From Dipteris shenzhenensis (Eukaryota): a stretch of 64,000 nucleotides of DNA. Numbering within the stretch: the stretch's first letter is position 1; the number at the start of each line of letters is the position of its first letter. The notes beneath the pieces are model-generated. The model was not told the origin of the DNA and did no database searches. It worked only from the letters and a program-made list of their open reading frames with translations. The stretch is from NCBI GenBank assembly GCA_047967505.1, contig CM106538.1; one strand, given 5' to 3'. Of this stretch, positions 30,094-60,585 are shown one piece after another. The position numbers and the translations under genes are program-made.

Positions 30094-33000
30094 TGCAAGA
30101 GAGAAAAATAGATAGTATGGAGAATAAAAAATTTGATTACTATAAAACTAATACAATAGATGGTGCTACCTCCCAGCCGTGCACTCCTGTGAGAGAAGCT
30201 TTGATGGCATGCTGGAAACAGTAGAGGACGGAGGCTGGATGCTAAGGAATCAGGGTTGCTATAGCAAGTGATGATGATGGGCTTCATGGGCTTGCTCTTA
30301 TATAGCCACCAGTCATAGTCGGCTAGACCCAATTGGGTGACCGACCCAGTCCAGCCAAAACGACCTCGGTCGGCCACCGACCACATGATAGAACTGTGGC
30401 ACAAAATAGAGCAACTAACCTACGGTCTCCACCATCTAGGATCATCGGGGGCTCTAAATGAGCCCCACAACCTGAGAGTGCCTCGAGAAATGCTCCGTCT
30501 ACCCTTAGTGCAGTCAGTGATGGGATGCCTTCCCGCACTTGCATGTAGCCTAGTTGGCAGTGTGTGAACTCTATCTGAAGCTGTCCAGCCATCAGGCCAC
30601 ACATGGCTCCCATCTAGTGTCCAAAAACCAAGACCTACCAGATAACTGAGCTACTCAAATGCCTTCTCCTCATATGGGGGCTTACAAGTAGAGTTAGCTG
30701 GTTCCCGTGTAGTTACACGAGAGTGGAGCATTGATATCTAACACCCCCCCAATATGTCCACCCGCAAGTGAACTTACTTTTTCGGCCCAACGCCATGATG
30801 AGCTCGCGTACAAAGTGATATTGAATCTCAATGTGTTTTGTGCGAGCGTGGAACACAAGGTTCTTTGCAATCGCCATGCAACTCTGATTGTCACATGATA
30901 ACTGCGTAGGCATGTTCTGCACTACACCCATGTCCCCTAAAATCCTCCTCAACCACACTGCCTCACAAGAAGCAAAACATGTTGATTTGTACTCAGCCTC
31001 AGTAGAAGAAAGAGCAACTATAGGTTGCTTCTTGCTGACCCATGACACAGCTCCAGATCCAAGTGAGAAATAGTAACCTGTCACTGGTCTCCTACTGTCC
31101 ACGTCTCCTGCCCAATTCGAGTCACAGAATCTGGTCAAGATGTTGCCCTTGGTATAGATGATGCCATAATCAAGTGTGCCTTTGATGTATTTCAGCACCC
31201 GCATCCCTGCCCTCCAATGGTTCTCTCGGGGCTTATTAGAAAACCTGCTTAGCACACCAGTCACAAAACTGATGTCCGACCGTGTGTTGCACAAGTAAAT
31301 CAAATTGCCGACAAGCCTTCTATACTTTGCTTCGTCCACCAGTGGTGATGAATCCTCGTTTGAGAGCTTCACGTCAACCTCCATAGGGGTGCCAACTGTC
31401 TTGCACTTAGCCATGCCAAATGCCTTCAGTATCTCTCTAGCATACTTCGGCTATGAGATGAAGATCTGTTTTGGCTCTTGCCAAACTTCAATCCCCAAAC
31501 AGAAATGCATCAGTGTCATTTCAAACTCTCTTCCTAGCAAATGCTTTGTCTACGAGATCTTCTCTTCATGGTTCCATGTTATGACAAGGTTGTCCACATA
31601 AAGGACCATGATCATACACCTGCCTCCTTTGTAGTTATACAAATTTGCATCAGATGGGCTCCTCCTGAACCCATTTTGCAAAAAGTAGGCATCAATCCAC
31701 TGGTACCATGCTCGTTGGGCCTGTTTTAGCTCGTAAAGTGCTTTCTTTAGTTTATAGACTTTATCTTCTGAATCGGGGATCACAAAACCTGTAGGTTGTT
31801 CCACATATACCTCCTCCTTGAGATCTCCATTTAGAAAGCCGGATTTTACATCCATCTGAAACAGGGGCTAGCTTTCTCTTCTAGCATTTGAGTAGAAGAC
31901 AGTTTCTTTTCAAGTTCCTCCTGAAGAAGATGCACCACCATTTCTCTGCTCTTTAGAAATTAGAAGAGCAATCAACTCCTCAAAATAAGGAAAATTCTCA
32001 CAGATAGACGGAATTGTGCATAATCCTTTTGTAGACCATTCAAGGTCACAGAAACTAAATCATCATCTTCCACTGGTGACCCAATAGAAGCAAGTGCATC
32101 TGCAATCTTCTTCACCTTCATGTGGTAGTCATTGATGCTCATATTTTCTCTCTGCACATTATGCAACTCCTGCTTGAGCGCTGCATTTTCCTGGCTTGCA
32201 TATTTTTGCTATACATTTTTGTCGAAGTATCCCACACCTCCTTTGGTGTGCTTGCATCTTGAATATGCACAATCATAGAATCTAAAATACTGATAAACAG
32301 CCAGTACATAACTTTCCTAGCTCTCTCATGCCAGCCTTTAAATGCTTGCAACTCTTGTTGATTGGGAACATTAGGAATAACTGGTTCTTGTCCAGCTCTA
32401 GTAATGAACTCCCAATAGCCTTTTCCCTTAAGGAAATTCGTCATTCTAAACTTCCATGCTTGGACATTGTTCTTGTCAAGCTTTTCAGTGACTATCAGTG
32501 AAAGAGCATCAGATGCCATTACAGAACACTGCGAAATTATTTTGTCACTGCAAAAAACACAACTTCTACCTCACAAGGGCAAATCTGCAAAACTGACGAA
32601 AGTGGTATTTAACCATACAGTCACTTCCTAGTGACGATTTTGCATCAACAGGCAATAGGAATGATTTTGTCATTCCCAATATCTCTGTGCACAGGCATAC
32701 AATGCAATTTTTGTGGTAACTTTTCACCGACCTGCAGAACAGTGGTCACACAACAAAAACAGTGCACTTTTCTGAGTGCTTGCGAAAAACTTCCACCACC
32801 AAAATGGGCACCAAAATGGCCTCTCGCCACACTATGAAGGGCATCCCAATCTGAGAAGTGCACCTTTGCACTTTCTGGCTATGCTACTTGCCTCTGATTT
32901 GCTCCCAAACTCGAAAAAGGAAAGCAACACTGATCCTCTTACCAAGACACCGTGAACTTGGTTTGCTTTCTTGAGCTCCTTACCATGAATCGAGCTTTGA

Positions 33001-35666: not shown

Positions 35667-37471
35667 CACTCAATCACACCTACTAACACATGTTCACACA
35701 CTCACAACCTTAGACCTTAGGACTCTAGATCCCATTACATCAATTTGTCCTTCATTCCCCCCCACAAATTGATGACCTCAACCCTAGCAATAGTCCATGG
35801 GAAACTTCACAATCTGCCCACCTGTAGTGGTAACACACATGATCCACAACCTGGTACTCACTCTAGTTGCATCAGCAGTAGACTCATTTGGGCATCCTCA
35901 TCCATGATCTCACTCTGACTTTACTTTGTTGGTTTACAATTGGGAGATAGACAATGACTATGCATGGGAATACCCTTAGATCCAACAAGGTAATACATAA
36001 GACTAACAATCGTTTTAGGGGGACATCCTAAGGTAGAGAACCCTTATTGAGTCTTGACTACACATACAAAAACATTCTAAGTGGAAGATGTGGGGAAATA
36101 CCCCCCTTTGATGGCATGTCTTGTCCTTTTTCTCCTTCTCTTCCAAGCTACCATAGTGTGAGGTTCATTGTCATTGGAGAGGTTCTTGGTGTAGCCAATG
36201 TGTAGCTCCTTTGCTCTTTGTCCTTGTCCACACTCTTTAATGTATCTTGTCATATTTTGCAATACAAGTCCTTCACCTTCTTTGAGTGTCCAAGCCATAA
36301 AAATATTTTGTGAATCATATGGGCTGAAGAGGCTCTTACCACTTGTCATGCAAGGGCAGTGTCTACTCTTGTACAAGAGGTGGTCATGATTGTATGGCAA
36401 GGTATAGTCAACCAAATGCAAGTACATTTCATACATCATGAAAGATACTGAAACCATAACTAAGACATCTTCAAAATAAGAATCATAATGGTTGTAGTTG
36501 AAACCTTTGTTCCAATCATATCCATTGGAAATCATCATGCAAGTCATGATATATCCTTCCTTCATGTAGGCTCTTGTCATAGTCAACCCACACTAGTCAA
36601 CTAGTCAACAAGATAGTATGACTTGAAATCCACTTCAAAGTACCATAACCTCAATATAAAATATGAAAAATGCATTCAACTGAACTTCAAAAAGCATTCT
36701 CACAACTAAAAAAGCAATCTCTGAATCGCTGATCTATACTTTAACTCCTCAAGCATCACCTTAGCATTTAGTGTAGCATCAAACTTCAAAAATAGTCTAG
36801 AAATGCCAGAAAGCATAGGAACCTTGGAGGATTGCTACCTCACTCCAAAAAGCATCAAGAAGAGGGAATTTGCTGTGCAATCAAAGGTACTTGGAAGTAG
36901 AAGACTCAGTGCAAGTCTCAAACCAAATGAAGCTTCACACCACCAGGGGAAGTAGTATCTTCTCCACCTCCAAAAACCATGTCTCTTCTTCAAAACCCAA
37001 CTGGTTTTGCCTTAGTTTCTCCTCATTCCCTTGACCATTTTCCCTAAGAATTCACCAACAGGTAGCCCATAGAGTCACCTAAGTGCACCTCAGACCATTT
37101 TTGAAATGCTAGCTCCAATAAGCTAAATTGATAGAAATGGCATAGGATGAAGCAAGTATCAGCATGGGCTATAGAAGGACAATTTCCAAAAACCCTTTGG
37201 AGTAGAAGTGCGCCTTTATGAGGGGAATCTATGGCTGAAATGGTTTGGAGAATGGTTGCCTACATTGGGAGAACAAGCACTTGAAAATTTTTCTCAAAAG
37301 AGGGAAAAATGGAGAAGAAGAGAGTGTGAGGAAGAAGATGATGACATGGCACCCGAAAACCTATATTCACTCAATCACACCTATTGACACCTATCTAGGC
37401 ACACCATGTGTTCACACACCCACAACCTTTGACCTTAGGACTCTAGATCCCATTACATCAATTTGTCCTTC
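35667..37471. repeat. ~90-100-bp direct repeats ~1.7 kb apart (possible LTR ends)
   Basis: cactcaatcacacct...gaccttaggactctagatcccattacatcaatttgtccttca at ~35667-35754 and ~37368-37471. Confidence 0.75.
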
Positions 37472-38375
37472 AAAATGTTGAATTAGTAATCATACCCAGG
37501 TTCTACCAAAATTTCCCCGGAAATCCTATCATCTTTTTGCATCCTATTTCCAACTTTCAAAACTACAAATCTTTATTTCCTCTAGCTTAAATGAATCCCT
37601 CATTAATCTTTTTAGAATCTATCACATTTTTGACAATATGGAATCCTTCACTTCCTATGATGGTACTGTGAGTCTCGCCACTCCCTCTACCGGCCTCATC
37701 ACCACTTCACTACTCCTACTAGCCTCACCACCCCTTCTACTACTCCCTCTACTATTGTGTCTCCCTCTACTTCCATAGCCCCATCACCATATATCCCTCC
37801 CTCTATCTCTTTCTCCATGCCAAGCCATATCATTGATGAAGAGTTGAATCCCAAACCTAAGCCTCAACAAAATACCCAAAGGAGTCTAGTCAACAATCCA
37901 CAACATGCCCAACAAAGAGAATAAATATGACCATAATGGTAGCCCCTCTCTATCCCATAGGAAGCCCTTAGTTTTATATTGAGATAGACCTTGCCATGGA
38001 ACTTCGTGAAACTCTAGTCACCCTAAGCTAATAGGAATGGCTCTATCTTCAAGGAATATCCCCTCAGATATAAAAACTTCCACATTCCTATTTCTTGTGT
38101 GGATAAGCCACACAAAACCAAAGTGGACTATCAAAGGTAGGGCAAAAAACCAAGACATGGAGAAAACTGCAGAAATAGGGATAGATAACAATTCAGACTA
38201 GAAGGTAGAGGCTCAAAAGAAACCTATTGTATAGTAAGAAAAGGAGAGAGTGACTTTTCCTTTGGCAACCAACAATACTTTTGAGGCTCTTATTGACAAA
38301 GAAACTAAGAAGTGGATTCAAGATGCACAAATGGAGGAAGCTGAAATCAAACCTAGATGGTTTAGAGAGTTTGAG

Positions 38376-38409
38376 CATTAGGGGAAAATTGGGGTCTCAA
38401 AAGGGCCTT
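38376..38409 (+). repeat. Left terminal inverted repeat
   Basis: cattagggga-aaattg-gggtctcaaaagggcctt; 10-bp and 18-bp blocks identical to the right TIR, 6-bp spacer. Confidence 0.92.
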
Positions 38410-38960
38410 AAAAGGAATGGATTAACCTCCTAGGTGGGAACCAAAAAATTCAAAATTCAAAATTTGAATTTTGAATTCCCTCCCTCATTCTCTCTCCTCC
38501 CTCCCTCGCTCCCTCCCCCTCATCCCTCCCCCTCCCTCACTCCCCCTCCTCACTCCCTCCTCCCCCTCCCTCCTCCTCCCCCTCCCTCTCTCCCTCCTCC
38601 CCCTCCCGTCTCCTCCTCTCCCCCTCCTCACTCCCTCCTCCCCCTTCCTCCTCCTCCCCCTCCCTCCCTCCCTCCTCCATGCCTGCTCCTTCTGCCCTCC
38701 CCTTCCCTCCCTCCCTCCATGCCTACTCCTCCTGCCCTTCCCCTCCCTTGCTCCTCCTCCCCCCTCCCTCCTACTCCTCCCTCCTCCTCCATGCCTACTC
38801 CTCCTCACCCTCCACACCTACTGGTCTGCCCCCATTTCCTCCTCTTCAACTACTGGTTCTCCCTCACCCTTCCCTCCTCCTCCTCGCCCTCCCTCTTCCT
38901 TCGTGCTGCTCCTTCAAGCCTACATCTCCACACCTTCTCCTTCTCTGCACTCCTTTAGTC

Positions 38961-41903
38961 ATGGCACCATTCAAGGACATCTCCAACAAGTACCAGGTCC
39001 ACTTAGAGTTGGAGGCTGAATATGCAAGCACACGTAGTCTAGGATCGAGGGGAGCTTCCAAAATCCGCAGTCTTTATTCGCAAGGAAAGAAGCATCTCAA
39101 CCTTTGGGTAGAAGGATCCTTGTATCCTTTAGATCCTGCCAACCAAAAGAGCCCTCCTTTCCATACAATGCATGAGCTAGTTCCGTTTTTTGGAAATGGA
39201 CATGCGAGGTTGCTTGGTTATTGCAATCGGTTAAACAATGCTTAGTCAATGGCTATGCAAGCAAGCGAGATGCACAGAGCCCAAGTAGAGATGTTAGCAC
39301 ATTTAGGAAATAGCACCATTGTTGTAATGCATAACTCTATGTAGGATCTTCAAAGGGAGAACCAGGATCTTCATGATAAAGCCAAAGCATTGGACTTGGA
39401 GCAACGTAAATTAGAAGAGTCACTCTATAAGCTAGCTAAGTCCAAAAAAGGCTTGAAAAGATCTATATACAATCAAGTACGATGAGCCATAGAGAAGGAA
39501 CGAGAGAAGGCAGAAGAACGAGTGCAAAAGATGAAAGAAACACCTTTGGGATTGAAGGAGAGGAAAAGAAGGTACTTACATAACATGGATGCATTGGCAC
39601 CCACTGGTGGTGCTAGAAAGAGGAGAGTCTAGGCTACAAGGTTGGTTATGAAATGTTCCAATGAGATTACACTCTTTTGTGCTACACTGTTTGTGACTAA
39701 GTTTTTATTGTGTTCTTCTTTAGGAACTTCATGGAAGATGTGATGGGAAGAATGGATGGGGATGATATTGACTATTCATATGCTCTAGCTAGTTTATTGA
39801 AGTCAATCGATGTCATTGAGATACTAAGGGACCCAAGACACAAGCGCCTATGTGTGCAAGTTGTTGAGGAGGTGATGAAGGACTTCAAGGATATTGTAGA
39901 TGCAAAGGAGATGCTTGTAGCTTGTGATACTGCCGGTGTAAGTCATGAAGCTTACACATCTATTTTTAAAATTTTCAAGTCTGCTATTTTGGGAAAGTAT
40001 AAGAAGTCTATAGTGCCCCTACCCACACCTTGGTCTGTGAGACGTGCATGGCGAGAAACAAACCAATGTGCAAGAGAAAAGCGTGGAGGGTAACATTGCG
40101 TAAGGGGCACAATGACTTGGAAGAGTAAAAAGAAATCTAGCTTGCAAACCTTTGAGATGAATGCTTTCAACAATGTCTACTTAGATGTTGAGAAACTACA
40201 ACAAGCAATGGTCTTCTATGGCATGAGAGAAGATGGTAAGAGGAAATCCATTATAGCATTGCACTTTACTTAGTTCATTTCCTATATCATGTTTATCCTA
40301 ATGGATTTTCTCTTTTGTTGTACAAATTGCAATGGAAAGCTCATATTTGTCATCAAAATGTATGAAGCTCAATTGGTGAAAGAACACAAGTTAGAGAGAG
40401 TCAGCATCTGCATTATGAATGAAGCCTTAGCCTTTGTTCAAGGGGACAAAGAAGTAGAGCAAGATTTATCAGTGCAATTAGATAAAGATATATGGTGGCT
40501 TGTAGCGTTTGAGACTTCAAAAGAGTGCCATGAGACATTGAAGTGGGTTCTAGATAGAAAATGAATCCCATCGACGATTCAAAGATAAGAGGAAGGGCAA
40601 ACATTGACAGTCGATGGCCATGGAACTTTTCAAGTTGAATGGCATCTTGCTGGTGATTTGAAAACCCTCAAGTGCTTGCATGGTTACGATACAGGGGCAA
40701 ATGCAATGAACACATGCCTTTATTGCATGTGTTCGCAATGTAAGCAAAAGGTTGGCTTACAATGGGAGAATGTCATTCTATCTTGTAGCCAAACGCAAGC
40801 TCCGAATCGTGACAAGAAGGATCCAAAGTGGGATCCCATCTTGCCCATCCCACTTGAGAGAGTACACATATGTACTTTACATGTAGAACTGTGCGTACTT
40901 GATAAGTTGTTGTATTTGCATCTTGTCTATGCTTGGAATTTAATTCTACAAGAAGTATCCACATGGTGCATTGCAGAAGCTGAGAAGTTGTTGTCAGAGA
41001 TGGGATTGCATAGAGGACATGTCAAACTTAAGGAGGATAAGAAATGTCTGGGGCAACATAGAATCTTCCTACAAAAGTGTCCATGGGTGGAGGGAAGGCA
41101 AGGAGATTCCTATCAAACCACAATCTCAACAAACATAAACATACATTGTCTCAAAGTAGTTTGGGTTGGGAATACTGGAAAGCATTGTGTGAATGCATGA
41201 CCAATAAGGCTTCTCATCCTCAAGTAGCAACTTTGAGAGCTAAAGTACAGACAAAGGTAGATGCATTGATAAAATTGCTTTGCTAGGTTCAAATCGATGA
41301 GATGTATTATGAAAGGTTCAGGCTGGCTGTGAAAGAGTTTATGTAATTAATGGTGAAAGCATGGGGGGAGTCACACATTACACATTACATGGTAATCTTG
41401 GCACCATTCTAATATTTAGCACTTGCTTTATAAACAATTTTTGTTGCTGATATGATTCTCATCATGTTTGTAGCATTCTCTATGCACATGGACCATGGTT
41501 TGTACAAAATTGGGGTCCCTTGTCAATTTGGAATACACAAGGCATGGAGAAGTTGCACTATAGAGCCAAGGCAGCCTACTTCAAGAACTCGAGGCATGGT
41601 GGTGGTGTCACTCGTAGCAATGCATTGCATGAGATGTTCGACTAGTTTTTTCGATGTTTACTAAGAAGGACTTTGGAGTCTGAAAAGGCAAAGGCATCAG
41701 AACTTGCAAAAGCAGTTCAAACTATATCAAAGAATAGAAGGCATAGTGTCTGGAAAGCATCCATAGGGAGTCGAGGAGTCACACTTGCAAAAGCAGTTCA
41801 AACTGTATCAAAGAATAGAAGACATAGTGCTTGGAAAGCATCCATAGGGAGTAGAGGAGTCACATGTTGGTTGCAAGCTAGAGTGAGAGAAGGGATCAGA
41901 TGA
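38961..41903 (+). pseudogene. RAG1/Transib-like DDE transposase with 3 introns, disrupted by stops and at least 2 frameshifts
   Basis: ATG 38961; introns 39641-39723, 40236-40325 (acceptor reads AA, not AG) and 41392-41473. Motifs in order: VIKM(Y)EAQ, ECHETL, LTVDGHGTFQV, AGDLK, CLYC, ICTLH, MGGGKARRFL, ITHYM|(H)ILYAH, GPLSIWNTQGMEK. Confidence 0.85.
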
Positions 41904-42262
41904 GTCCAACCACCAACAAAAGCTATGGTGTAATTGTATACAAATATGAAATAAATATATTGCTTATTTTGACCACAATTTGTGTACTTACTCTTTAATA
42001 TCTTGCTTATTTTGACCACAATTTTTGTACTTACATGACATTGGGGAAAGTGGGGACATGGTGAATAGGGGCGAGAGAAGGGAGAGGCATGGGGCGGGGC
42101 AAGGGGAGGGGTGGAGTGGTAGCAAGGGTGGGGGGAGGGGGGGATGGGGGGTATGGGGGAGGGCGATGGGGGCGGGGCAAGTAGGGGGAGGGCAGGGGGG
42201 GGAAGGGCAACGAGGGTGGGGGGGTTGGAGGGGTTAGTAGGGCGGGGGCAGGGGACATGATG

Positions 42263-42333
42263 AAACCCTAAATGTAATTAAAAGGGATGTCAAAACATGA
42301 TGGGCCCTTATAAAAAGCTTTTAAAAACCCTAA
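42263..42333 (+). promoter_or_regulatory. Putative promoter of the H3-like gene: telo-boxes, site II motif, TATA box
   Basis: AAACCCTAA at 42263-42271 and 42325-42333; TGGGCC 42301-42306; TATAAAAA 42309-42316; ATG 42347. Confidence 0.55.
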
Positions 42334-42346
42334 CTCTCATTATTCA

Positions 42347-43372
42347 ATGGCAAGAGTGAAGAACACTGCTAGACCCACTGGACATCGCCTCCACCCTTCC
42401 TCCTCTAGCTCCACCACCTCCATGGCATCTATGCACACAAACCTATTCGGGTTCGATGGCACCTCCCTCGACTCTCATGAGCTCTCCCCCAACTCCCCCA
42501 AGTCTCGTGAGCCCACTCCCTAGTCTCCTGAGCCTTCTCCTCCTCCCAAGTCCCGTGAGCCCACTCCCCAGACCCAAGAGCATGAGCCTTCCCCTCAGCC
42601 TTCTCCCCAGCCTTCCCCTCAGCCTTCCCCTCAACCTCAGCCTTAGCATGACCCTCAGCCTTCCCCTTGGCCTCAGCCTCAGCCTAACCCTTAGCCTTCC
42701 CCTCAACCTTCCCCTGAGCCTTTCTCTAGGCCTTCCCCTCCCCATGAGATCCCTCTCTCGATCGAACAAAATGTATTCGATAACCTCTCGGATATAGAGA
42801 GGCTTCCTAAGGGTCAACAGGCTGCCATGAAGAGCACCATCTTCCCTCTCCCAGAGATACAACCCATGGCAGAGATGACCCTTGTGCCCATGAGGAGGGT
42901 AAAGCAGACTCCGAGGAAGCCCCATCCCAAAGAAGGCCAAAGCTCCAGACATTAGCGAGAGGAGGACTCAAACGAGGACCAACGTAGACAAGAGCAGCGA
43001 AAGAAGTTCAAGGCAGACAAGAGGCCGTGGGAAGGTGTTCAGGTACTTGTAAGGCCCCCACCAAGAGTCAAGAAGCCATACTAAGTAAAACTAGGAGTGC
43101 GGGTGATCAGGCAAATGCAGAAGACCATCGACAACTTGATCCCGCGTGCTCCCTTCCAACGTGTGGTATGGGAGATCAGACAGGGATACAAGGACAACAT
43201 GCACTTCAGCATAGGAGCTATGGGGGTGCTCCAGGAGGCTACAGAGCAAGTGACCATCGCTCTCTTTGAGGACGCCAACTTGTGTGCCATCCATGCAAAG
43301 CGTGTCACGGTCATGGACAAGGACATGGCTCTGGCGAAGCGGCTATGGAGTGACCCAAGTTTGAATCCCTAG
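42347..43372 (+). pseudogene. Histone H3-like protein with a long Pro/Ser/Gln-rich N-terminal tail (341 codons plus stop, 5 in-frame stops)
   Basis: One reading frame from MARVKNTARPTG (42347) through PSPQ repeats, MRRVKQTPRK (42890) and VKKPY to the H3 fold [21 protein letters not shown]...LQEATE...[28 protein letters not shown]. Stops at 42521, 42644, 42692, 42953 and 43082 are all TAG or TAA. Confidence 0.9.
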
Positions 43373-43565
43373 ATTCTCTTGCAACCCACTCTTAGGACTT
43401 AGACCACCCCCTGCCCTTGAAGGCACTATCTTATATCTAAAACCCAAGGGCCTATTTTTTAAAATAAAATATATCAACATTCTCTACACTATCGCATTGT
43501 TGTATATTTTCCATTTCAATGCTTGCAATAAATGATCATTTTAAGTTAAGTTTTGAATTCTGTTC

Positions 43566-43736
43566 AATCCTGAAGGAATTTCACCATCGCGCAAAAGGGA
43601 AAAGTGTCTGGCACATCGCCAGGACCCCAGAAAGCCCAAAACTTGCCATGGTGTGAATTTGGGCATTCTGGACTTTGCCCTGGCGAGGTTTCGGACACTT
43701 TTACCTTCTGTGCGATGGTGAAATTTCTTCAGGATT
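43566..43736. repeat. 171-bp imperfect palindrome (hairpin)
   Basis: Left arm aatcctgaaggaatttcaccatcgcgcaaaagggaaaagtgtc...; reverse complement of right arm aatcctgaagaaatttcaccatcgcacagaaggtaaaagtgtc...; inner ccagaa(a/t)gcccaaa pair; centre ccatgg. Confidence 0.9.
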
Positions 43737-43965
43737 TCACAAAAATGAACTCTTGATACCCAGAATTGGTGAAAATGATACTAAATTGGCTAGAAATCTA
43801 TTAAATTAACACAATTAAAATGATGGAGAAAATATATCATCGACTTAAACAAAATACAATGGAATTCATGACGAGCAATGAGAACTTAAAACAAATAATA
43901 AAGACATGTAGTCATGTATCCATTGAAATATCCATTTAGATATATGTTTATATATACAAAAGGCC

Positions 43966-45434
43966 TCACAGGCTATCTTTCTTCTTGGCTAGTTCGAGTA
44001 CATTGAGAATAGGGGTCTTTGAATCCCCTAGTGGATTCCTAGATATAAATCTAGCCACAACAGCACTAACATCCTCCTCTCCTACTACCAAAGATAGCCG
44101 TTGCCGTCAATGCCCTGCCATGAATGTTCGATCTAAAGGCATTGATAGCAACCAGGTGGTGTACCAAAATGACTTTGTCGACATTCCGAGTAATGTTGAA
44201 GTATCCAATAGCACGCGATAATGCCTTGCACTTCAGCAGCTTCAAAGGACCTCGAGGAGAAAATTTGCTATGAAAGACCACGATATGCTCTACGACTTTG
44301 CCAAGGTAATGGGCCAAAGAATGATCTCGCCCAAATGTGCTGTGAACATTACCCTATCGAGATGAGAATTCATCAAGCTCGAACACATCCTGCAACAATT
44401 CAACAAACATTAGAAGACCGACAAAACAAATTATACTGAAACAACATCAAAATAAAAAATATTGTTCGAACTTACCACTACAGCGTCATCGGCTTCTATC
44501 CCTTCGTCATTTGCAATGTTGAAGGAACCAGGTGCTATGTGATGTTCCATTTGGGAGGTGGACGCTTTCTCCTGACTTGTGTTGGAGGTGGAAGCTTCTG
44601 CATGAGAGGGTTGTGCATCGTATACGGACATGTCTACATCCCTCATTGAAACCAGCATTGTCAAGAGAAAGTCTTTCATTGTCTAGTCTTTGATACCTAA
44701 AACCCTAGGATCTTTGACACTTGTGTCAACATCAAACCTCGATAGGACTCTGAGTGCCTCATCCTCTCGTAGTCCAAAAAGAATCTCTATGTCATGGAGG
44801 AATACGTACTTTTCTCCATCGATGACGAGGGGAAACAAGGACCATAATTTTGAGTTTGGGTCAACGGTCTCTGATGCAGATTCTTGCTCTACTGGGGGCT
44901 CTTGAAGCAGGCTCAATGCTTGAGCTACTTCCATCTCCTCTATTGGATCATCAAGAATCTCTTCCATGTAGATTTCCGAGTCTAGGGACGACCATATCAG
45001 TAGTTCTGATAGAGGGGGTGCTAGACGATGAGGTTTCTTCCTCTAAATTTCATCTCCCATGAAAGGAATTTGGTGCCTGTATTTCTTATGATCCTTGCGT
45101 CTAGGATGTCTTGAACTTCGACTGTCCTAAACCCTTCGTATGTAAGGTTGTCACAAAAGCGGGCCAAGCGCTTTACAAACTTGGGTTCCTCTACGAACAG
45201 ATACTTTATGTAATCTATGGGAACCCATCTCTTTAAAGTGTGGTCAAGTGTATAGGCAAAATTTGCGAAATTATCTTACATGTAAAGGATGAGATCTGAA
45301 AAGTCATCCTTGGCCTGCATATATGTGCTTAGGACATCTAAACTCCTATCAAACACTAAAAATAGCTCTTCCTCATGATTTGCAAATGCAGTTTGTGAGA
45401 TGAAGTCATGGAATGTAGTTCTAGCTGAATCCAT
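43966..45434 (-). pseudogene. Unknown protein gene inside the transposon (one intron, stops and frameshifts)
   Basis: ATG 45434 (MDSARTTFHDFISQ...); TATA-like run at ~45540. ORFs 44683-44967, 44431-44679 and 44066-44317 are linked in frame by a stop and a GT-AG intron at 44475-44390. Confidence 0.6.
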
Positions 45435-45680
45435 GGCAAATAGCAGTTGATGGAGGGAGTAACTTTTGAGGATGGGAGTTTCTATGGCTCTCTAAATGTG
45501 AAAGTGAGAATGTGATGTAAAAAGGGCTCTTACCCCTTAATATATATAAAAACCCTAAAAATTAAAATTAATCATAAAATCCCCAAATTTTTTGAAAAAC
45601 ATTTACCATGAACTGAAAGGAGAAAACATTAAAAGAAATAACATTTTAATTTAATTGTCCATCATCTTTTGAATCAATAA

Positions 45681-46993
45681 CTAGGATTTGATAGACAAAA
45701 AATTAAATGCTGCACTAGTAAACACATTGTTAGCAATCTTCAAAGTTGCAGGAGGAATGAAATTGGCACTATGCATGCACTTCTCCACATGGTGGCTGAT
45801 CTTACCACCATTTAAGGTAAAGTAGAAGAACTCTGACATGCTGTCCTCCATGACCAATAGGGGTTCTCGCACATCCCCTAGAGTCCATTGCAATGTGACA
45901 TTCACATTCTTGACATCTCCTTTTTCAGCATGAATAGACAAACTTACCCCCATATTGTCTTCATCATTAGAGTCTAGGGGAAGCCACCGGCCATTTGTTT
46001 TCTTCCAGTTCCTATACTGAAAAGCTATATACAACATTTCGCATGTATCTAATAACCACATTGTCTTTACATGCATGACATTGAAACACATCACCCTTTT
46101 GGTCACCTGACCTGGTTTCCCAATTCATCCCAAGTAAATCTTCAAGAGCATTTTCATCTACATGCTTGCAGGACCACATAGTTTTTGTTCTATGCATATG
46201 TATATTCTGAAATAAAGAAGCAAAAATGTGCAGAGGCATAAACCAAGATAACCTTGCCCATTTGGATCCAAATGTAAACTTCATGGCCATGCCCACATCC
46301 TTTGCAATCTTGTCCTTGTATGATTGCAATGTCCTCGAGTCCACATTGCTGCAATCCATGTCTTGAAGTTGTGGTAGTGCAATGGTTTACAGACATCCAT
46401 AGCTTGATGATGTCGTTGGAGTGATGTATGTTGCATTATATCAATACACATTCTTCATTCACAAGGAGGCCAACTTCTCCCCGGCATGCATTTGCTCACC
46501 TAAATCCTCATGAATCGCAGTGAACTTGCCTATGAATGATTCAACTAGTTCCCACTCCTCGAGGTCCAAAGGGAAAAAATTTGCCACCATGAATAAGAGC
46601 TCTTAGAAACCAAACACAAAATTTCCAAATGGACGCATTACACTTATAGGTGAAAAAGATACATAGATAGAAAGGCTCACAGTGTGATGGTATCCTAGAT
46701 TGATTGAATGATGGAGGAAGCTGCATATCTTTTCCCATGTAAACATGTTGCACTTTTGCGAGCCATCCTTTCTTCCCAAACTTGAACTTCAAGATGCACC
46801 CCTTCCACTCATGCAAGATGTCACCTCTCTTGCACTTGGGAATCTTATGTGGACCTTTGGCCGATCCTTTCATCACTATCCAGTCATTTAAGTTGTAGGT
46901 GCAAGGGATCTAATCATCCAATGCATTTTTGGTGTTGTGGAAGACACAAGAGGTCACAGCATTGCATGGTCTTGTAGCCTTTCTCCTCACCAT
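45681..46993 (-). pseudogene. Probable BAH-domain protein inside the transposon
   Basis: ATG 46993; YNLNDWIVMK...EWKGCILKF...AKVQHVYMGKDM, intron from 46680 (acceptor not clean), then FPLDLEEWELVESFIGKFTAI...NVY*YNATY. This follows the BAH motif order and runs in frame into ORF 46012-46359. 3' end uncertain. Confidence 0.65.
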
Positions 46994-47679
46994 GCTTGCA
47001 GCAGTTGCAACAACAAGAACGGGACTCCTACACAAGGCAGTGCAGCTCCAATAGAGGCACAAAAGAGGGAGAAGGAGAGGGACAAAGTAGTAGCAATAGA
47101 GGGAGAAGTAGAGGGATAGAGCAGCAACAACAGAGGCATAAGAGAGGGAGAAGGAGAGGGACAGGGCAACAACAACAGAGGCACAGGAGAGGGAGAAGGA
47201 GAGGGGTAGTAGAGCAGCTCCAACAGAGGTACAAGAGAGGGAGAGGGGAGAGAGAGAGAGAGAGGAGCTGGAGCAAGCAGGCTAGAGTAGGAGGGAGCAG
47301 AGAAAGAGGGGGAAGAGGGAAAATGCGTAGGATTTGGTTTAAATTTGAGTGATTTGGTAGGCTGGACCAGAACAGTGGGCGGCAGAGGCCCTAGAAAGAG
47401 GGAGGGGAGAAGAAAAATTTGCCACAAGGGCCATACCATCCCCTTGAAGGTAGTTTTGGGCTCATGTGGGGGAGGTGCACCTGGTAGGAGTGTCAAAAAT
47501 GGGTTGAGGGGGGGGGGATGGTTTGGGTGGTCCCTAGTGTAAGGGGAGCAACCAATAGGGGCTCTCTGCAGGCATGCCCACCCTCCACCTCAGCATACCA
47601 TTGCACCACACCTTCTAGCACTCTCATTGATACACCTCAAATCACTCTCTAATCCCTTAAAATTAGGAAACACTAATTG

Positions 47680-47710
47680 AAGGCCCTTTTGAGACCCTTC
47701 TCCCCTAATG
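47680..47710 (-). repeat. Right terminal inverted repeat
   Basis: Reverse complement cattagggga-gaa-gggtctcaaaagggcctt; same two blocks as the left TIR, 3-bp spacer. Confidence 0.92.
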
Positions 47711-50700
47711 GAGGATGTAAATCAAGTAGATGCCAGTATGAGTGAATTAGAGTTAGGAGACTCAGAGGAAGAACTTCCTTTGGCCCAAAAACTGAGTAAT
47801 CCTATAGGACCTCCTGCCAAACCTCAAGCCACAACTCTGAATAAGAGAAGGATTTCCAAGTAAAGGGTTAGAGTGCCCCACCCAAAAGCCCAACACCCAA
47901 GGCTAAAAAGGGGAAGAGTAAAATAAACCATTCACTTTTCTCACAATGTTTGTGGATTAACTGACTCTTGGAGGAGTCAGGAATTAGCCAAGTGGCTGAG
48001 AGATAGTTCTCTGTCTCCTACATTTCTTATCTTACAAGAGGTGAAAGTAACAAATGTCACCCTGGATAATAGGTTAAAAAAGGTTGACATCATAAGAATT
48101 TGGCATTTCACAAGTCATGATGAAGGAAGGGGTGGCACTGCAATTGGGATATTGTCTCATGACAAGGACTGTGTCATCAGGTGCAGGCAGGACCCAAACC
48201 ACAAATGGCTTGCTTTAGAATGCAGAATGAAAATTTTTTATTTCACAGTTGTCTCAGTTTATGGTCCAATAGGCTCTATGGAAAGAAGAATCACTTGGGA
48301 TTTAATGCTGAATCTAGGAAGTGACTGTATTATTATTGGGACTTCAACATGGTTGAGAATATCAAAGACAGATGGATGCAGAAGGGATCAGTACTTAGGG
48401 GTTCTAAACAACAAATATAGGAAGATCTCAAAGAAAATTTGCAAGTGGTATACATCGGGACTCCCAGCATCTACACTTGGAGCAATAGACAGGTAAGTAA
48501 TTTGAGGAGAGAAGCCAGGCTAGATAGGGTGTATATTTCTCAATCTCTAATTGACCAAGCTCTAGAAGTCAAACAATCCACCTTTTCATCCCTCACCTTA
48601 TCAGACCACAAGCCAGTGTTAGCTTGTATTGATTTGGGGTGTGGGAAGAAAGGAGACTCTTGCTTTAAGGCCGATCCTTCCCTGTTTAAGCTTCAGACAG
48701 TTCAAAGACAACAAATTATAGAGAGTTGGCACTTGTCTTTTGTAGTAGCTGACTCCTTGTGTCAGGGTTGGAAGGATGCTATTGAAAGGGTCCAAACAAT
48801 CTTAAAGGAAGCCAAAAAAAATAGAGTAGCCATTAGAGCAAGAAGAATGGACAAGCTTAAGAAGAATATTGAAGGTCTTGAACAAAGAGCTAGAAGTAAT
48901 GATGTCAATACCCAACATCAATTATTGGTCAAAAGAAAAGAGGTCAGAGTACAAGAACAAATCAAGCTACATAATGCCAAGGTCTACTTTAGGGAATGGT
49001 GGGTAGGCAAGATAGACAATCCAACTAAGGAGAATTTCAAAAGGATTAGAAAAAAGAGGAATCATGACAAAATCCCTTGGTTGCAAAAGGAGGATGGGGA
49101 ATTGGTCAAATCAGAAATAGAAAATATGGAGATCATAGTCACTCACTTCAAAAACCTTTTAAGCACAGTGGAGTTAATAGACAACAAGGTCTTGGAGGCC
49201 AAAAATAGGTGCCATGTAGCCAAAAAATCCTATGTATCTAACCTAGACAAAAATCAGTTGGAAATTGACCTATCCCTTCAAGAACTTAAAGAGGAGGTGT
49301 TTGCAATGACTGATGGCAAAACACCTAGGGAAGATGGGCTACCTGTTGAATTCTACAAATTCTTTTGGGACATTGTTGGCCCCTCCTTACTGGCTGTTTG
49401 GAGGGAGAGTGTTAAACAGGGCCTACTCCCAAAGCATTTAAATGGAGGGGTAATTAAACTTATACCAAAGGAAGGGGACAGGACAGTCTTAAAATATTGG
49501 AGGCCCCTCACTATACTAAACTGTTCCTATAAGATATATGCTAAAGAAATTGCTTTGAGACTAAGACACAAGATGGACAAGTGGATTTTGGAGGAACATA
49601 AAGGATTCATCAAGAACATGCATCTATTAGAGGCAATCATCAAATTATGGGAAGGGTGCACTCATGTTGAAGAAAGAAATTAAGAGATCTGTCTTATTAA
49701 AATGGACTTTGATAAGGCATATGATAGGCTGAATTGGGGCCTTCTGCTACAGTCACTTAACAGCTTGGGATTGGGGAAGAAATTTACCTCCTATGTAGCT
49801 CTGCTAATATCAAATGCCTCTACAAAGGTGTGTGTGAATGGTGATATGTCTCAAAGCTTCATGTTGAGAAGGTCCATTATTTGCTATAGCTGTTGATGCC
49901 TTGGGATGGTTGATAAAAGAACTGGTGATTGCAGTAGAAATCAATGGTATAGAACTCCCCTCTAGAAAGCAACTGGTATACCAGCAAATTGCCAATGATA
50001 CTACCCTAACAATTAGAAACACAAATGTAGACATACAAAGAGCTATGGAATGTATGGATATATTCTGTAATGCATCTGGGTCAAAAATAAATCACTTCGA
50101 AATAGGTTATGCATTATTATTTGGTGACAACCTAAACCTTTTAGAATAGCTTGGATGCAAGAAGGTTCCCCATGGACAGATATTCAAGCTATTAGTTATC
50201 CCTATCAAATTCAATGTTAGGATGAAAGATAGATGGGAGTTCCTAGAAAAGTTCAAAAAGAAAATAGATAGTATCAGGGGATTGCATACATCAAAGCCCT
50301 AACTAATGGAATTTAGCATTTCATGTGATAGACTATCTTCTATACGATGGCAAGGGATAACCTTGAAGTATTGTTAGCCTTAAACAAGGCCAAGGCTTAC
50401 CTACCTCTTCTCTTCCCTTTGATCTCCATTGCCTTGACATCCTTCTCTTTCCTTACTTTGCCCTTTCATCCTCGTTTACCTATTTCATTGTAGTCTCTTT
50501 GCCTAATTTTCTTTATCCATCCATGGAATACCATTATGGGGTCTGCTACCTTTGTGAACATTCTCTTTAGCATCATCATGCCACCCACGCTCGCTGTCTT
50601 CCTCAAATTTGGGTGTGTGCCCATTTCATTCAGGTAGGCCTCATGAATGATATATATAATTCACCTTGTTTGGAATATTACAATTTTTACCATTAAGAAA

Positions 50701-59694: not shown

Positions 59695-60585
59695 CTTTGG
59701 AGAAGTGGAAAAAACCACCAAGGTTCCACAATATTTCGAAAACGCCGAGGGCAATGGTGAGGCTTTCTTTTCAAGACGGTTTGCACGCTGCAAGGCGTAA
59801 ACTAGCTAGCCTGAAGTAGTGCACTAGTGGTATCTCCTTGCAGGTCATAGGAAGCAATACCCAGGAGTGACAGTGAGAACGCAAGAACGGAAGGGAAGGA
59901 CGTATACGTACTGCAGCTACGGAGGGGAATGACAATTTGCAGATCCGAGGTTTGCCAAAAAGGGTACCAGAAGGCAGCTACGCAGGGAATGACAACTTGC
60001 AGATCAGAGAATGGAAAAAGGGTACCAGAAGGCAGACATTTGCAACATGAGGGCAATAGAGGGTGAAAGCTCATGCGAGCGGGGGAAGCAAGCAAAAACT
60101 GCTGTCGCGGAGGCCTTAATTTCCTCGTGCGACTACACTGATCAGAAATCAGAGACAACTGCAAGGGCGGGTGCCGCCGGGGAGGGAAGGGAAGTTCCAA
60201 TATATGAAATGCAAGAAGGGGTGGGGGGCGTTGCGGGACGATTGGGGAGCTCGTCACGAGCGGGCAGCTGCACGTTGAGGCGAAGGAAAGGGCGCGTGTG
60301 TGTATGGGACGAGGCGGGGCAAAGAGAGACGAGGAAGGTACAAAAACAGATCAGTGGTGTCCGTTTAATCAAGAGCAAGAGAGGGTGCGTGCGTGCAGGG
60401 AGGCAACGAAAGCAAGCATGATGATGGGAAGGTGAGATAGGCGGAGAGGAGGCAGCGGCGGCAGCAACTGCAAGGAAAAGAAACGTGGAGATGGAGGGGA
60501 GATGATGGGAGAGGAAGAAGAAGATGGAAAGACGAAGAGGAGGAGGAGGAGAAGGGAGGGTATGGCGATGGCTAGCTATGGCGAT

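Follow-up and report, generated by a model that had tools for sequence, protein, structure and literature searches.

CACTA elements are defined by 3-bp target site duplications (TSDs) and CACTA termini, and CACTA-Mirage-Chapaev (CMC) transposons combine subterminal repeat arrays with a two-gene layout of a transposase and an accessory protein. In ProtoRAG the second gene, RAG2L, is convergently oriented, and fungal KDZ transposons carry TET/JBP genes. Transib was defined by Kapitonov and Jurka (2005) with a 5-bp TSD and a CAC heptamer, and plants were found free of recognisable Transib. For 1007 plant genomes surveyed in 2025, seven active superfamilies with terminal inverted repeats (TIRs) are listed in the available portion, Transib not among them. 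Kapitonov and Koonin place Chapaev within the wider Transib superfamily (accessible part of PMC4411706), a source from which the ProtoRAG gene arrangement given above is also taken in part. According to the available text of PMC6710886, hAT elements of the Dothideomycetes Pseudocercospora fijiensis and Pyrenophora tritici-repentis transduplicated histone H3, the captured copy being of housekeeping H3; in P. fijiensis all copies except the original are RIP-inactivated. VANDAL elements are mentioned in the portion of PMC12973397 at hand. A literature search, outside which Repbase and Dfam lie, returned no account of a plant element such as the one described here.

The window, i.e. the whole 64-kb stretch of DNA that was analysed, contains one DNA transposon of 9,335 bp at positions 38376-47710 (Table 1). 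We read it as one of many copies, now dead, of a cut-and-paste DNA transposon in a land plant. Its anatomy and RAG1-like fold can be stated with high confidence, and the full explanation, with the accessory genes and their proposed role, is favoured with some reserve. The first 10 bases (CATTAGGGGA) are identical at both ends, and the alignment of the 34-nt left and 31-nt right TIRs contains 30 matches, one mismatch and one 3-nt indel. The 18-nt TIR core occurs exactly twice in the window, the copies inverted to each other, against 0.04 occurrences expected by chance and two matches in none of 100 shuffles. GAG is duplicated at the two ends, and 3-bp target duplications are made by this transposon family. 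When the element is removed and the flanks are joined with a single GAG, one open LINE frame runs through the junction and stops just upstream of an ORF with weak similarity to Exo_endo_phos (E 0.0013), followed by a weak match to the start of RVT_1 (E 0.0094). The TIRs, the 3-bp TSD and the interrupted LINE frame, all noted in an earlier sequence-only reading, are thus confirmed. The CT-rich array at the left end may serve as a binding region for an accessory protein.

Table 1. Features of the transposon and its insertion site (window coordinates)
Feature	Coordinates	Strand	Remarks
Left TSD copy	38373..38375	.	GAG, 3 bp
Left TIR	38376..38409	+	begins CATTAGGGGA; 18-nt core at 38392-38409
Left subterminal array	38480..38960	.	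CT-rich, low complexity; mirrors the right-hand GA-rich array
Transposase pseudogene	38988..41885	+	RAG1/Transib fold, via relative P0002
H3-like gene	42347..43372	+	one frame, 5 internal stops, intronless
Histone-fold part of H3-like gene	43085..43372	+	Pfam Histone, E 2.8e-25
Inverted repeat	43548..43754	.	two 76-nt arms separated by 55 nt, with 80% complementarity, shortly past the 3' end of the H3 frame
ORF2	44069..45491	-	convergent accessory gene conserved across the transposon group; relatives' ORF2 profiles
Gene 4	45681..46909	-	three overlapping/adjacent ORFs, 122-147 aa
Right subterminal array	46990..47350	.	GA-rich, low complexity; mirror of the CT-rich array at the left
Right TIR	47680..47710	-	terminal inverted repeat
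Right TSD copy	47711..47713	.	GAG, 3 bp
Interrupted host LINE	47714..49683	+	end of the broken frame, then endonuclease-like and RT-start ORFs

The decayed transposase gene (~890 codons) was traced by tblastn with an 898-aa relative, P0002, in four pieces (E 3e-98) covering query residues 2-893. Its coding sequence contains no fewer than 10 in-frame stops and shifts frame three times, in part probably at introns. The copy is dead, in agreement with the earlier reading. Of the catalytic residues, the first Asp has been substituted (KMYE vs KLDE in relatives); the second (AGDLK) survives, as does the Glu motif (QGMEK). A D...D...E pattern is conserved in the transposase family, which numbers 641 representatives at E<=1e-3, with a CxxC ~20 residues past the second Asp; the lineage occurs in green-lineage organisms and many eukaryotic metagenome contigs. 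The nearest transposase protein is 45% identical to that of the window, whose own lineage yielded no intact copy.

Sequence comparison of the family with Pfam and PDB produced no match over any threshold, and the fold was analysed on an AF2 model of the full-length relative P0002 (pLDDT 78.4). Foldseek ranked RAG1 (1.1e-10) and HzTransib (1.7e-6) before the P element (0.018). By VIA-align, residues 244-845 of the model align with RAG1 460-1007, the whole RAG1 core past the nonamer-binding domain (Z 19.8, 460/548 residues, rmsd 4.4), and nearly all of HzTransib is aligned as well (Z 18.2, 413/480 residues); BbRAGL follows with Z 18.1, and far lower scores were obtained for the P element (10.5), ISCth4 (8.7) and Hermes (7.7). 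The modelled structure agrees with the RAG1/Transib-like transposase proposed earlier, and on this model the family is a Pfam-unrecognised DDE lineage with a predicted RAG1/Transib core fold.

No solved CMC transposase structure is present among the structural matches of the model, and we know of none; therefore, the RAG1-like fold cannot separate Transib from its CACTA/Chapaev relatives. Somewhat short of an even chance is given to a placement of the element on the CMC side rather than in Transib proper, the RAG1 match reflecting deep kinship only. The 3-bp TSD, the CATTA terminus near CACTA, the convergent accessory gene and the subterminal arrays all point that way, as do Plavaka- and Transposase_21-bearing clusters among the language-model neighbours in Atlas and the position of Chapaev in the Kapitonov and Koonin scheme (PMC4411706, accessible part). 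Yet the terminus is CATTA rather than CACTA, and at E<=1 Pfam Transposase_21 and Plavaka are matched by none of the family, whereas Pfam RAG1 is touched by two of 18 members in the Glu-motif region (E 0.003, 16 bits, under the 25-bit cutoff).

The genes follow the order transposase, H3-like gene, ORF2 and gene 4, and pieces of the last two were both found on the minus strand, in agreement with the + + / - - layout read from the sequence. The decayed H3-like gene (~340 codons) starts with MARVKNTARPTG, continues through an S/P-rich stretch to a second H3-tail-like start, MRRVKQTPRKPH, at about 42900, and ends in the histone fold, whose Pfam match upholds its identification. Because identity of the fold to assorted H3 proteins reaches only 50-58% and a non-canonical tail of ~250 codons precedes it, this gene was not copied recently from a canonical H3 of the host. 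Profiles of relatives' ORF2 match positions 44069-44353 (E 3.5e-15) and 44686-45042 (E 6.1e-5), and ORF2 has no similarity to Pfam families, including the RAG2-like Kelch and PHD domains. Convergent ORF2 is a common accessory gene of the transposon group, to which the window lineage adds H3 and gene 4. None of the 29 related loci yielded the latter; a Pfam comparison of its three ORFs gave nothing at E<=1, and the largest has no usable match in Atlas. Its earlier interpretation as a BAH-like chromatin reader is not supported, and hence neither is the suggested toolkit of several chromatin proteins: H3 alone is recognisable as a chromatin protein, ORF2 and gene 4 having no recognisable domain.

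Copy number in the host species was surveyed by contigs of two DNA runs, X1 and X3, at >=80% likeness. Every bin between 38885 and 47641 is covered in both runs, the summed depths, which do not equal copy number, being 59-3961 (X1) and 55-717 (X3); some of the left CT-rich array was masked out as repetitive. Summed depths fall to 0-10 in the outer flank bins (36800-38050 and 48059-49300), and the end-straddling bins are intermediate (113.6/74.2 for 38051-38467 and 42/35.3 for 47642-58, X1/X3). The whole element, including the H3 and gene 4 regions, is multi-copy in the host species and its flanks are not. The H3 tail region (42221-43054) has summed depths of 59-109 in X1, 2-4 times lower than the transposase and ORF2, and 55-93 in X3. 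A 503-bp host contig aligns to 42701-43097 at ~87% identity; one contig (depth 49) keeps the H3 tail region and is devoid of the histone fold (43097-43369).

Among the 29 related metagenome loci, 10 extend at least 400 bp past the transposase and are informative. An H3-fold ORF lies about 300 bp past the transposase stop, on the same strand, in two of them (L001 and L002; 2/29 overall). The transposases of these metagenome relatives are only ~36% identical to that of the window (measured against P0002). Six of the 10 have ORF2 straight after the transposase without H3, one has neither, and in L019 an ORF starting MARTKQTARK follows the transposase until the contig ends after 87 codons. H3 is therefore not carried by every member of the group. 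L002 has an intact H3 of 168 aa (Pfam Histone E 5.6e-34). For this single pair, L001 vs L002, the H3 genes have dN 0.26, dS 1.26 and dN/dS of about 0.2, with nearly the same dN in the transposase (0.27, dS saturated) and amino-acid identities of 64% (H3) and 65% (transposase); on these values the H3 of L001/L002 is under purifying selection.

Since H3 is multi-copy in the host, recurs at the same position and strand in distant relatives and is under selection there, it is a recurrent accessory gene and not a one-off capture, and we regard it as likely to be a family-level, selected component of this transposon group. An unlikely alternative is Pack-type capture, by which the H3 segment and gene 4 would be functionless host fragments amplified passively. 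Such amplification of H3 is documented in fungal hAT elements (PMC6710886, available text), the window fold resembles ordinary H3s more than it does the H3s of the transposon clade, most informative relatives have no H3, one host contig lacks the fold, and selection was measured on a pair outside the host's own copies. This account is opposed by the divergence of the window H3 from any H3 found and its long non-canonical tail, by the common position and strand in L001, L002 and L019, by the selection on the L001/L002 pair with equal dN in H3 and transposase, and by the motifs described below.

The L001/L002 type comprises another 11 clusters at 90% identity, with 62-94% identity and lengths of 155-170 aa throughout, and its clade has 71 of 172 columns invariant, mostly in the fold. 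The window H3 shares with it an M-x-R-V-K-Q start, LIP[RK]APF and a [SN]L[ND]P C-terminal extension. In contrast, the window H3 is 37-42% identical to this clade vs 50-58% to ordinary H3s, and it has no counterpart of the 13-15-residue insertion in loop 1 of the L001/L002 type. In the free tree its very long branch falls outside the clade and joins H3s that are near-canonical but long-tailed (P0013/P0014, support 83). Independent H3 acquisitions are therefore possible, and a history in which H3 was picked up several times at the same site, the two types not being orthologous, is a possibility to which we give roughly one chance in three. It would also fit the transposase tree, where H3-bearing elements are dispersed and ORF2-only elements interspersed. 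Against it stand the shared motifs and the identical position and strand, and by the AU test a single clade of window and L001/L002 H3 is preferred or at any rate not rejected (p 0.76; the constraint raises lnL by 11 units over the free quick tree), an outcome to which long-branch attraction may contribute.

By analogy with RAG1 and Transib, the transposase would bind the ~34-bp TIRs and would cleave and rejoin DNA by means of a DDE site that has a CxxC/CxxH zinc module. The H3 variant retains the H3-H4 and H3-H3' contact regions, which makes its assembly into nucleosomes probable. A K4-like lysine is kept in the tail, the A-R-K-S contexts of K9 and K27 are missing, and in the best-sampled clade loop 1 is much enlarged and the C-terminus extended. 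These features point to two conceivable roles: i) variant nucleosomes could escape or dilute silencing based on H3K9/H3K27 methylation, or ii) they could form a private mark read by the element's own proteins. We propose such an anti-silencing or self-marking mechanism only tentatively, as a rather doubtful one. Still less probable is a soluble decoy, in which the H3-like N-terminal peptide would tie up H3-tail readers or writers and the protein could do without its fold. Third ORFs with H3-tail-like starts and no visible fold are found in L001 (MVRRKITPRR) and L002 (MVRVKKTPTR), and these starts, together with the L019 ORF, the two starts within the window frame, the fold-less host contig and the invariance of K5, C7, A8 and K14 in 12/12 transposon H3s, would suit a decoy. 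However, the fold is strongly conserved too, holding most of the invariant columns, and the fold-less ORFs are read only to contig ends.

Compared with described systems, the window's family resembles Transib and RAG1 in the core fold, the D...D...E pattern and the CxxC module, and differs from Transib (5-bp TSD, invariant CAC heptamer) in its 3-bp TSD, CATTA termini and plant host. Its convergent ORF2 parallels RAG2L of ProtoRAG, as far as the available part of the source describes it, but unlike RAG2 has no Kelch or PHD match in Pfam. The 3-bp TSD, the CA-initial terminus, the subterminal arrays and the pairing of a transposase with an accessory gene are shared with CACTA/En-Spm and Chapaev, from which the element is set apart by CATTA in place of CACTA, by the lack of Transposase_21/Plavaka matches and by an ORF2 without Pfam similarity. 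L001/L002-type H3s recall CENP-A/CENH3 in the longer loop 1, the W-x-A-Q-A-L-L-A-I-Q start of helix 2 and the C-terminal extension; among solved structures they score highest against an H3.1/CENP-A chimera (102 bits) and Cnp1 of fission yeast (101 bits), a small margin over ordinary H3 (94-97 bits), whereas the window H3, without the loop insertion, has its best solved-structure matches in H3.3/H3. With VANC of VANDAL and TET/JBP of KDZ elements this group shares the concept of a DNA transposon retaining a chromatin or epigenetic accessory gene, which there is a DNA-binding anti-silencer or an enzyme and here is a core histone variant known from its sequence. The Dothideomycete hAT elements, in the available account, likewise amplified an H3-like sequence to many copies, but theirs is a housekeeping H3, whereas here a strongly diverged H3 stands beside a RAG1-like transposase and recurs in distant relatives.

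The element spans positions 38376-47710 of the window, and the coordinates proposed from sequence alone proved exact with respect to the terminal inverted repeats (TIRs), the GAG/GAG target-site duplication (TSD) and the restored frame of an interrupted LINE. The first ten bases are identical at both ends (CATTAGGGGA), and alignment of the 34-nt left TIR with the 31-nt right TIR gave 30 matches, one mismatch and one 3-nt indel. The 18-nt TIR core GGGTCTCAAAAGGGCCTT has only two occurrences in the 64-kb window, one per strand and both at the element ends, compared with a chance expectation of 0.04, and two matches were obtained in none of 100 shuffles. Both termini begin with CATTAGG, and after these first seven bases the A-rich block CAAAAGGGC follows after a spacing of 15 nt in the left TIR and 12 nt in the right TIR, because the two differ by the 3-nt indel. 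The unequal spacing bears a loose resemblance to the heptamer-spacer-nonamer arrangement of Transib/RSS ends.

Joining the flanks with a single GAG produces one reading frame that crosses the junction and terminates in a stop. An ORF shortly past this stop matches Exo_endo_phos (E 0.0013) and then RVT_1 (model positions 1-54, E 0.0094); these LINE endonuclease and reverse-transcriptase matches are weak, being both under the curated Pfam cutoffs, and follow the expected order. Since the joined flanks restore the frame and GAG flanks the element, it was inserted into a probable degraded LINE with generation of a 3-bp duplication, a length read from the single window copy because the longest related contigs, when inspected for TIRs, gave none. 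Two other readings of the ends, PIF/Harbinger (TTA/TAA) and Tc1/mariner (TA), were dropped when extension of the TIR to CATTAGGGG yielded the clean GAG/GAG pair and the restored LINE frame. Elsewhere in the window, an intact single-exon AP2 gene (58147-59805, minus strand; 552 aa, one AP2 domain with E 8e-16) encodes an ERF-type transcription factor and marks the host as a land plant, and a 245-aa minus-strand ORF at 30713-31450, without a Pfam match at E<=1, presumably resembles the C-terminal part of a Ty1-copia polyprotein.

Features of the element and their positions in the window
Feature	Position	Strand	Description
Left TIR	38376-38409		
Right TIR	47680-47710		
TSD GAG	38373-38375 and 47711-47713		
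Subterminal low-complexity arrays			CT-rich on the left, GA-rich on the right; mirror orientation
Transposase pseudogene	38988-41885	+	tblastn with P0002, four pieces
H3-like gene	42347-43372	+	One frame with five internal stops, directly downstream of the transposase
ORF2 pieces	44069-45491	-	Convergent ORF profiles of related loci
Gene 4	45681-46909	-	Upstream of ORF2; three ORFs of 122-147 aa

The transposase was delimited with P0002, an 898-aa full-length relative, residues 2-893 of which are covered in the window (E 3e-98) at 26-36% identity, with 36% in the core. Ten or more stops and three frame changes interrupt the window frame, with some breaks at intron positions of relatives, and the first conserved Asp, found as KLDE in relatives, is replaced in KMYE. 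This copy is dead, as had been proposed. A word-based protein search found 10 longer proteins at E<=1e-3, including a hypothetical protein of Klebsormidium nitens, the best being 45% identical to the window transposase. The exhaustive search with P0002 retrieved 641 representatives at E<=1e-3, of which 255 reach <=1e-10 and 49 reach <=1e-30, and one cluster of the family contains short transcriptome fragments labelled Pyramimonas and Prorocentrum. Pfam assigned no family to the window transposase ORFs and none above threshold to the 18+10 relatives scanned; the RAG1 model was touched by two of 18 family members in the region of the candidate catalytic Glu (E 0.003; 16 bits, the cutoff being 25 bits), and a profile of 18 relatives gave no match at E<=10 in a PDB sequence search.

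The structural evidence is clear-cut. The AlphaFold model of P0002 (90 sequences, pLDDT 78.4, pTM 0.70) matches the mouse RAG1 core, with RAG1 residues 460-1007 paired with model residues 244-845 by VIA-align, and the 'RAG1/Transib-like' label given to this transposase is thus right at the fold level for RAG1 and HzTransib alike. The family shares an ordered set of motifs comprised of D (KLDE), D (AGDLK), CxxC some 20 residues on, CxxH and E (QGMEK), and the candidate catalytic D of KLDE is present in 13 of the 14 alignment rows that have residues there. We take the D/D/E and CxxC spacing to resemble that of D600/D708/E962 and the C727/C730 zinc site of RAG1.

Structural matches of the P0002 model
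Structure	Foldseek E	VIA-align Z	Aligned residues	Rmsd (Å)
Mouse RAG1 core	1.1e-10	19.8	460 of 548	4.4
HzTransib	1.7e-6	18.2	413 of 480	4.0
Amphioxus RAGL (BbRAGL)	5.3e-8	18.1	463 of 553	5.3
P element transposase	0.018	10.5	337 of 442	6.0
ISCth4		8.7	264 of 355	6.1
Hermes		7.7	278 of 478	4.9

The second gene of the element is an H3 variant, as had been proposed: its frame begins with MARVKNTARPTG, continues with ~190 S/P-rich codons and a second H3-tail-like start MRRVKQTPRKPH, and closes with a histone fold, for which E is 2.8e-25 against Pfam Histone and 1e-24 against solved H3.3/H3 chains (phmmer). The canonical tail is absent. Only the first ~8 residues are H3-like (MARVKNTARPTG; MRRVKQTPRKPH; MGRVKQCAKRLP), and the remainder is S/P-rich or acidic by reference to the near-canonical H3 inside the database protein P0019, relative to which the Lys at the place of K4 is kept, while the A-R-K-S settings of K9/K27 and the K36 region are lost. 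Of the reads aligned from two RNA runs, 227 of 228 and 97 of 99 overlap the stretch only in part; most of these partial reads derive from canonical H3 mRNA and touch it over ~40 conserved bases at 43261-43308. Immediately 3' to the H3 frame is an inverted repeat (43548-43754; 76-nt arms, 80% complementary, 55 nt apart), perhaps a small nested element of palindromic form or a structure at the end of a transcript.

The two minus-strand genes yielded no recognisable domain. Profiles of ORF2, the accessory gene convergent to the transposase, match the window at 44069-44353 (E 3.5e-15) and 44686-45042 (E 6e-5) and nowhere else in it. No Pfam family was found at E<=1 for any piece of ORF2 or of gene 4, the Atlas search gave no usable match for gene 4, and the AlphaFold model of the ORF2 C-terminal domain from seven sequences had a pLDDT of 49, too low for use. 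The label 'BAH-like' for gene 4 has therefore lost its footing, each of its three ORFs being without a Pfam family at E<=1; a very remote BAH likeness is conceivable. The suggested multi-protein chromatin toolkit is likewise left unsupported, as the H3 fold is the only such component recognised.

Copies of the element in the host species were assessed from contigs of two DNA runs of different studies, X1 and X3, aligned to window positions 36800-49300 at >=80% likeness; the summed contig depth obtained in this way does not equal copy number. Every bin in 38885-47641 is covered, with depths of 59-3961 in X1 and 55-717 in X3, compared with 0-10 in the outer flank bins (36800-38050 and 48059-49300); the bins that straddle the ends have 113.6/74.2 (38051-38467) and 42/35.3 (47642-58) in X1/X3. 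The whole unit, including H3 and gene 4, is therefore repeated in the host species. Depths are 243-472 (X1) and 82-462 (X3) for most transposase bins, with single bins of 1031 and 3961 (X1) and 492 (X3), 73-134 and 61-84 for the H3-ORF2 spacer, 169-214 and 67-95 for ORF2, and 283-337 and 136-218 for gene 4. The H3 tail region (42221-43054) has depths of 59-109 (X1) and 55-93 (X3), whereas ordinary H3 genes add to the depth in the fold bin 43055-43471. The peak of 3961 falls in bin 41387-41803, the 3' part of the transposase, where X3 has 196 and the neighbouring X1 bins have 472 and 619; a short piece in this bin is far more abundant in X1, perhaps as a non-autonomous derivative or an unrelated repeat.

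Not every host copy carries a complete H3 gene. In X1 the depth of the H3 region is 2-4 times below that of neighbouring regions, and one X1 contig (503 bp, depth 49), which matches the unique sequence 42701-43097 at ~87% identity, keeps the tail region and is without 43097-43369, exactly the histone fold, 271 bases being skipped and 24 other letters standing in their place. A fold-less derivative of the H3 gene thus exists in the host species.

Metagenome contigs searched with six transposases yielded 29 related loci, 10 of which have >=400 bp after the transposase match. Two of these (L001 and L002) carry an H3-fold ORF on the same strand ~300 bp past the transposase stop. In L019 an ORF starts with MARTKQTARK, the ten-residue start of the near-canonical H3 inside the database protein P0016, and departs from H3 after these residues, the contig ending at 87 codons. 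Six loci have the convergent ORF2 directly, with no room for H3: the ORF2 proteins of L005, L012, L013 and L017 are mutually similar, and their profile finds those of L014 (E 3e-33) and L016 (E 7e-16). The remaining locus, L007, has neither gene. H3 is thus not universal in the group: two of the ten informative relatives have the H3 fold, whereas six have ORF2 without it. Third same-strand ORFs follow H3 in L001 (3059-3238) and L002 (2587-2856), opening with the H3-tail-like starts MVRRKITPRR and MVRVKKTPTR, respectively, and running off the contigs. Beyond ORF2, short-repeat arrays in both orientations are seen in L005 (5009-5257; 37-38-nt palindromic units) and L013 (5051-5379; 22-nt unit); they look like subterminal repeat regions, and no TIR pair was found within these two contigs.

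The H3 gene of L002 is intact (168 aa; Pfam Histone E 5.6e-34; solved H3 chains E 3e-28 by phmmer), and that of L001 has one stop. Between these loci the H3 proteins are 64% and the transposases 65% identical, with dN of 0.26 and 0.27, respectively; dS of H3 is 1.26, giving a dN/dS of ~0.2, and the synonymous sites of the transposase are saturated. The two genes look like linked genes under purifying selection. Eleven further clusters of this H3 type, formed at 90% identity, are in the protein database; their proteins are 62-94% identical and all are 155-170 aa long, and several clusters have 6-21 members. One of these clusters lies on a 4541-bp ENA contig, equal in size to a contig with a transposase of the P0002 cluster, which offers a lead towards linkage of the two. 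All 12 H3s of this type conserve K5, C7, A8 and K14 of the tail, the larger part of the fold, an insertion of 13-15 residues in loop 1 and an extension at the C-terminus. With host copies of the H3 region and H3 placed beside the transposase and selected in L001 and L002, the gene is more than a one-off capture: H3 is a real, recurrent cargo of RAG1-fold transposons, selected in relatives.

Whether the window H3 and the L001/L002-type H3 are one gene is a separate question. The window protein is 37-42% identical to the latter clade and 50-58% to assorted H3s, and does not have the loop-1 insertion. In a free quick H3 tree it sits on a 1.4-long branch beside the database proteins P0013 and P0014 (support 83), with the transposon H3 clade separate (support 100). 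P0013 and P0014 are 214-224-aa H3 variants from JGI contigs of ~1 kb, with long S/P-rich tails, a K-x-N-T-A-R-K-S-T start and the motifs LIPRAPFQR and LFEDANLC. On the other side, both H3 types have the same position and strand relative to the transposase, a common start pattern (M-x-R-V-K-Q, then P-x-K) and a C-terminal extension ending in [SN]L[ND]P; they also share LIP[RK]APF, which occurs in P0013/P0014 and other variants as well. In the AU test, the tree holding both types together was 11 log-likelihood units above the free quick tree (p 0.76), a result to which long-branch attraction may contribute. In the transposase tree the window copy stands alone in an unresolved fork, with H3-bearing, tail-bearing and ORF2-only elements interleaved, and this interleaving is compatible both with an ancient H3 gene that was lost repeatedly and with several gains at a single site. 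We somewhat favour a single origin; under either, H3 beside such transposases is recurrent. The two types also compare differently with CENH3/CENP-A chains: the L002-type H3, with its long loop 1, scores 5-8 bits higher to CENP-A-type chains, a small margin, and the window H3 has neither the long loop nor the higher score.

By analogy with RAG1/Transib structures, the transposase would bind the TIRs as a dimer and cut by a DDE mechanism. Judged by its position and conservation, ORF2 would be the general helper of the group, and its binding sites might be the subterminal arrays, as is the case for accessory proteins of CACTA elements. The H3 variant keeps the pre-fold region KRRWRPGTVALREI (L002 type) and the helix-2/helix-3 segment AIHAKRVT...KD...L..R, which we take to be the H4 and H3-H3' contacts; because these segments are kept, entry into nucleosomes is the simplest expectation. 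In plants and algae, transposon and Polycomb silencing depend on methylation of H3K9 and H3K27. Variant nucleosomes might act in two ways: i) being unable to take K9/K27 marks, they would weaken the loop between H3K9 methylation and DNA methylation on and around the element, or ii) their private surface (loop 1, C-terminus and tail) would be read by the element's proteins to find or avoid targets. Taken together, these two options are possible, though less likely than not. A prediction of the complex between P0002 residues 200-898 and the transposon H3 P0334 scored 0.00 in a run that used no alignments and had no controls, and speaks neither for nor against an interaction. The protein might instead act as a soluble tail decoy, a view suggested by ORFs of L001, L002 and L019 that start like H3 and have no fold, and by the host contig that has no histone fold; this we regard as improbable. 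The remaining share falls to selection of H3 for something else, or to neutrality in the window lineage.

The reading that we put forward, tentatively and as possible rather than probable, is that a deep, previously unrecognised green-lineage group with the RAG1/Transib fold, reaching land plants, keeps a selected H3 variant that supplies its own nucleosomes, either refractory to H3K9/K27-based silencing or bearing a private mark that guides the transposase. Such a variant would combine a K4-like tail start, without K9/K27 contexts, with private loop-1 and C-terminal surfaces. RAG2 reads the H3 tail in V(D)J recombination, and this would be echoed if a private chromatin mark guides the RAG1-like transposase of the element.

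Placement of the element among known superfamilies gives a mixed picture. With respect to Transib (sensu Kapitonov and Jurka, 2005), homology to the RAG1 core is seen in the relative P0002 by fold alone, the sequence evidence being sub-threshold. As defined in the founding paper, Transib has a 5-bp TSD, compared with 3 bp here (GAG, in one copy only), and an RSS-like TIR with an A-rich nonamer and a CAC heptamer start, the C at position 3 being invariant, where the element has T (PMC1131882). The Transib assignment therefore holds for the fold, whereas the 3-bp TSD and the CAT rather than CAC terminus argue against Transib proper. CACTA/Chapaev-type elements have a TSD of 3 bp (2-4 bp), termini that begin with CA, subterminal repeats and a second gene. 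The TSD of the element fits the 2-4 bp range of CACTA/CMC, and its termini read CATTA, against CACTA in that superfamily. No Pfam match to Transposase_21 or Plavaka was found at E<=1 in the window ORFs or the 18+10 relatives; clusters bearing these domains are among the Atlas nearest by language-model features. No CACTA-type structure was among the structural matches of the P0002 model, and we know of no solved one, so the fold does not choose between the Transib and the CACTA/Chapaev side. Chapaev is viewed by Kapitonov and Koonin as a distant clade of the wider Transib superfamily (PMC4411706). We file the element as a separate, unnamed lineage within the RAG1/Transib/Chapaev world, and give only slightly less than an even chance to its falling on the CMC side in a proper tree. 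Its combination of a RAG1-like core, a 3-bp duplication and CACTA-like ends bears on the relationships of Transib, Chapaev and CACTA.

The element is a DNA transposon with an accessory gene; the surprise lies in the presence of this enzyme class in a plant and in a selected core-histone variant as cargo. According to the founding Transib paper, plants seem free of Transib (PMC1131882). A 2025 survey of 1007 plant genomes and 17 superfamilies including Transib relied on Pfam models and reports seven superfamilies as active, with Transib not among them (PMC12973397); Pfam models miss the transposase family of the element. Literature searches on Transib/RAG1-like elements in plants or algae, part of which were poorly discriminating, retrieved nothing closer, within a scope outside of which lie Repbase, Dfam and supplements that could hold the family. 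With this family, the enzyme lineage ancestral to V(D)J recombination gains in both host range and diversity. A transposon-borne core histone variant maintained by purifying selection would represent a novel type of accessory gene and, in the conflict with silencing through chromatin, a novel candidate strategy. The idea can be tested, as intact relatives supply complete transposase and H3 genes.

For H3 or histone genes in transposons, the literature searched (again apart from Repbase, Dfam and supplements) contained nothing closer than a fungal case. In Dothideomycete fungi, a housekeeping H3 was amplified by hAT elements, and its copies are passive and, in P. fijiensis, RIP-inactivated (PMC6710886). 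The fungal cargo is a housekeeping copy carried by a hAT element, whereas the H3 described here is a long-diverged variant carried by a different, RAG1-fold class of transposase. Unlike the fungal case, it recurs across elements with transposases only ~36% identical (window versus P0002), and in the one pair tested, L001 and L002, it is under selection.
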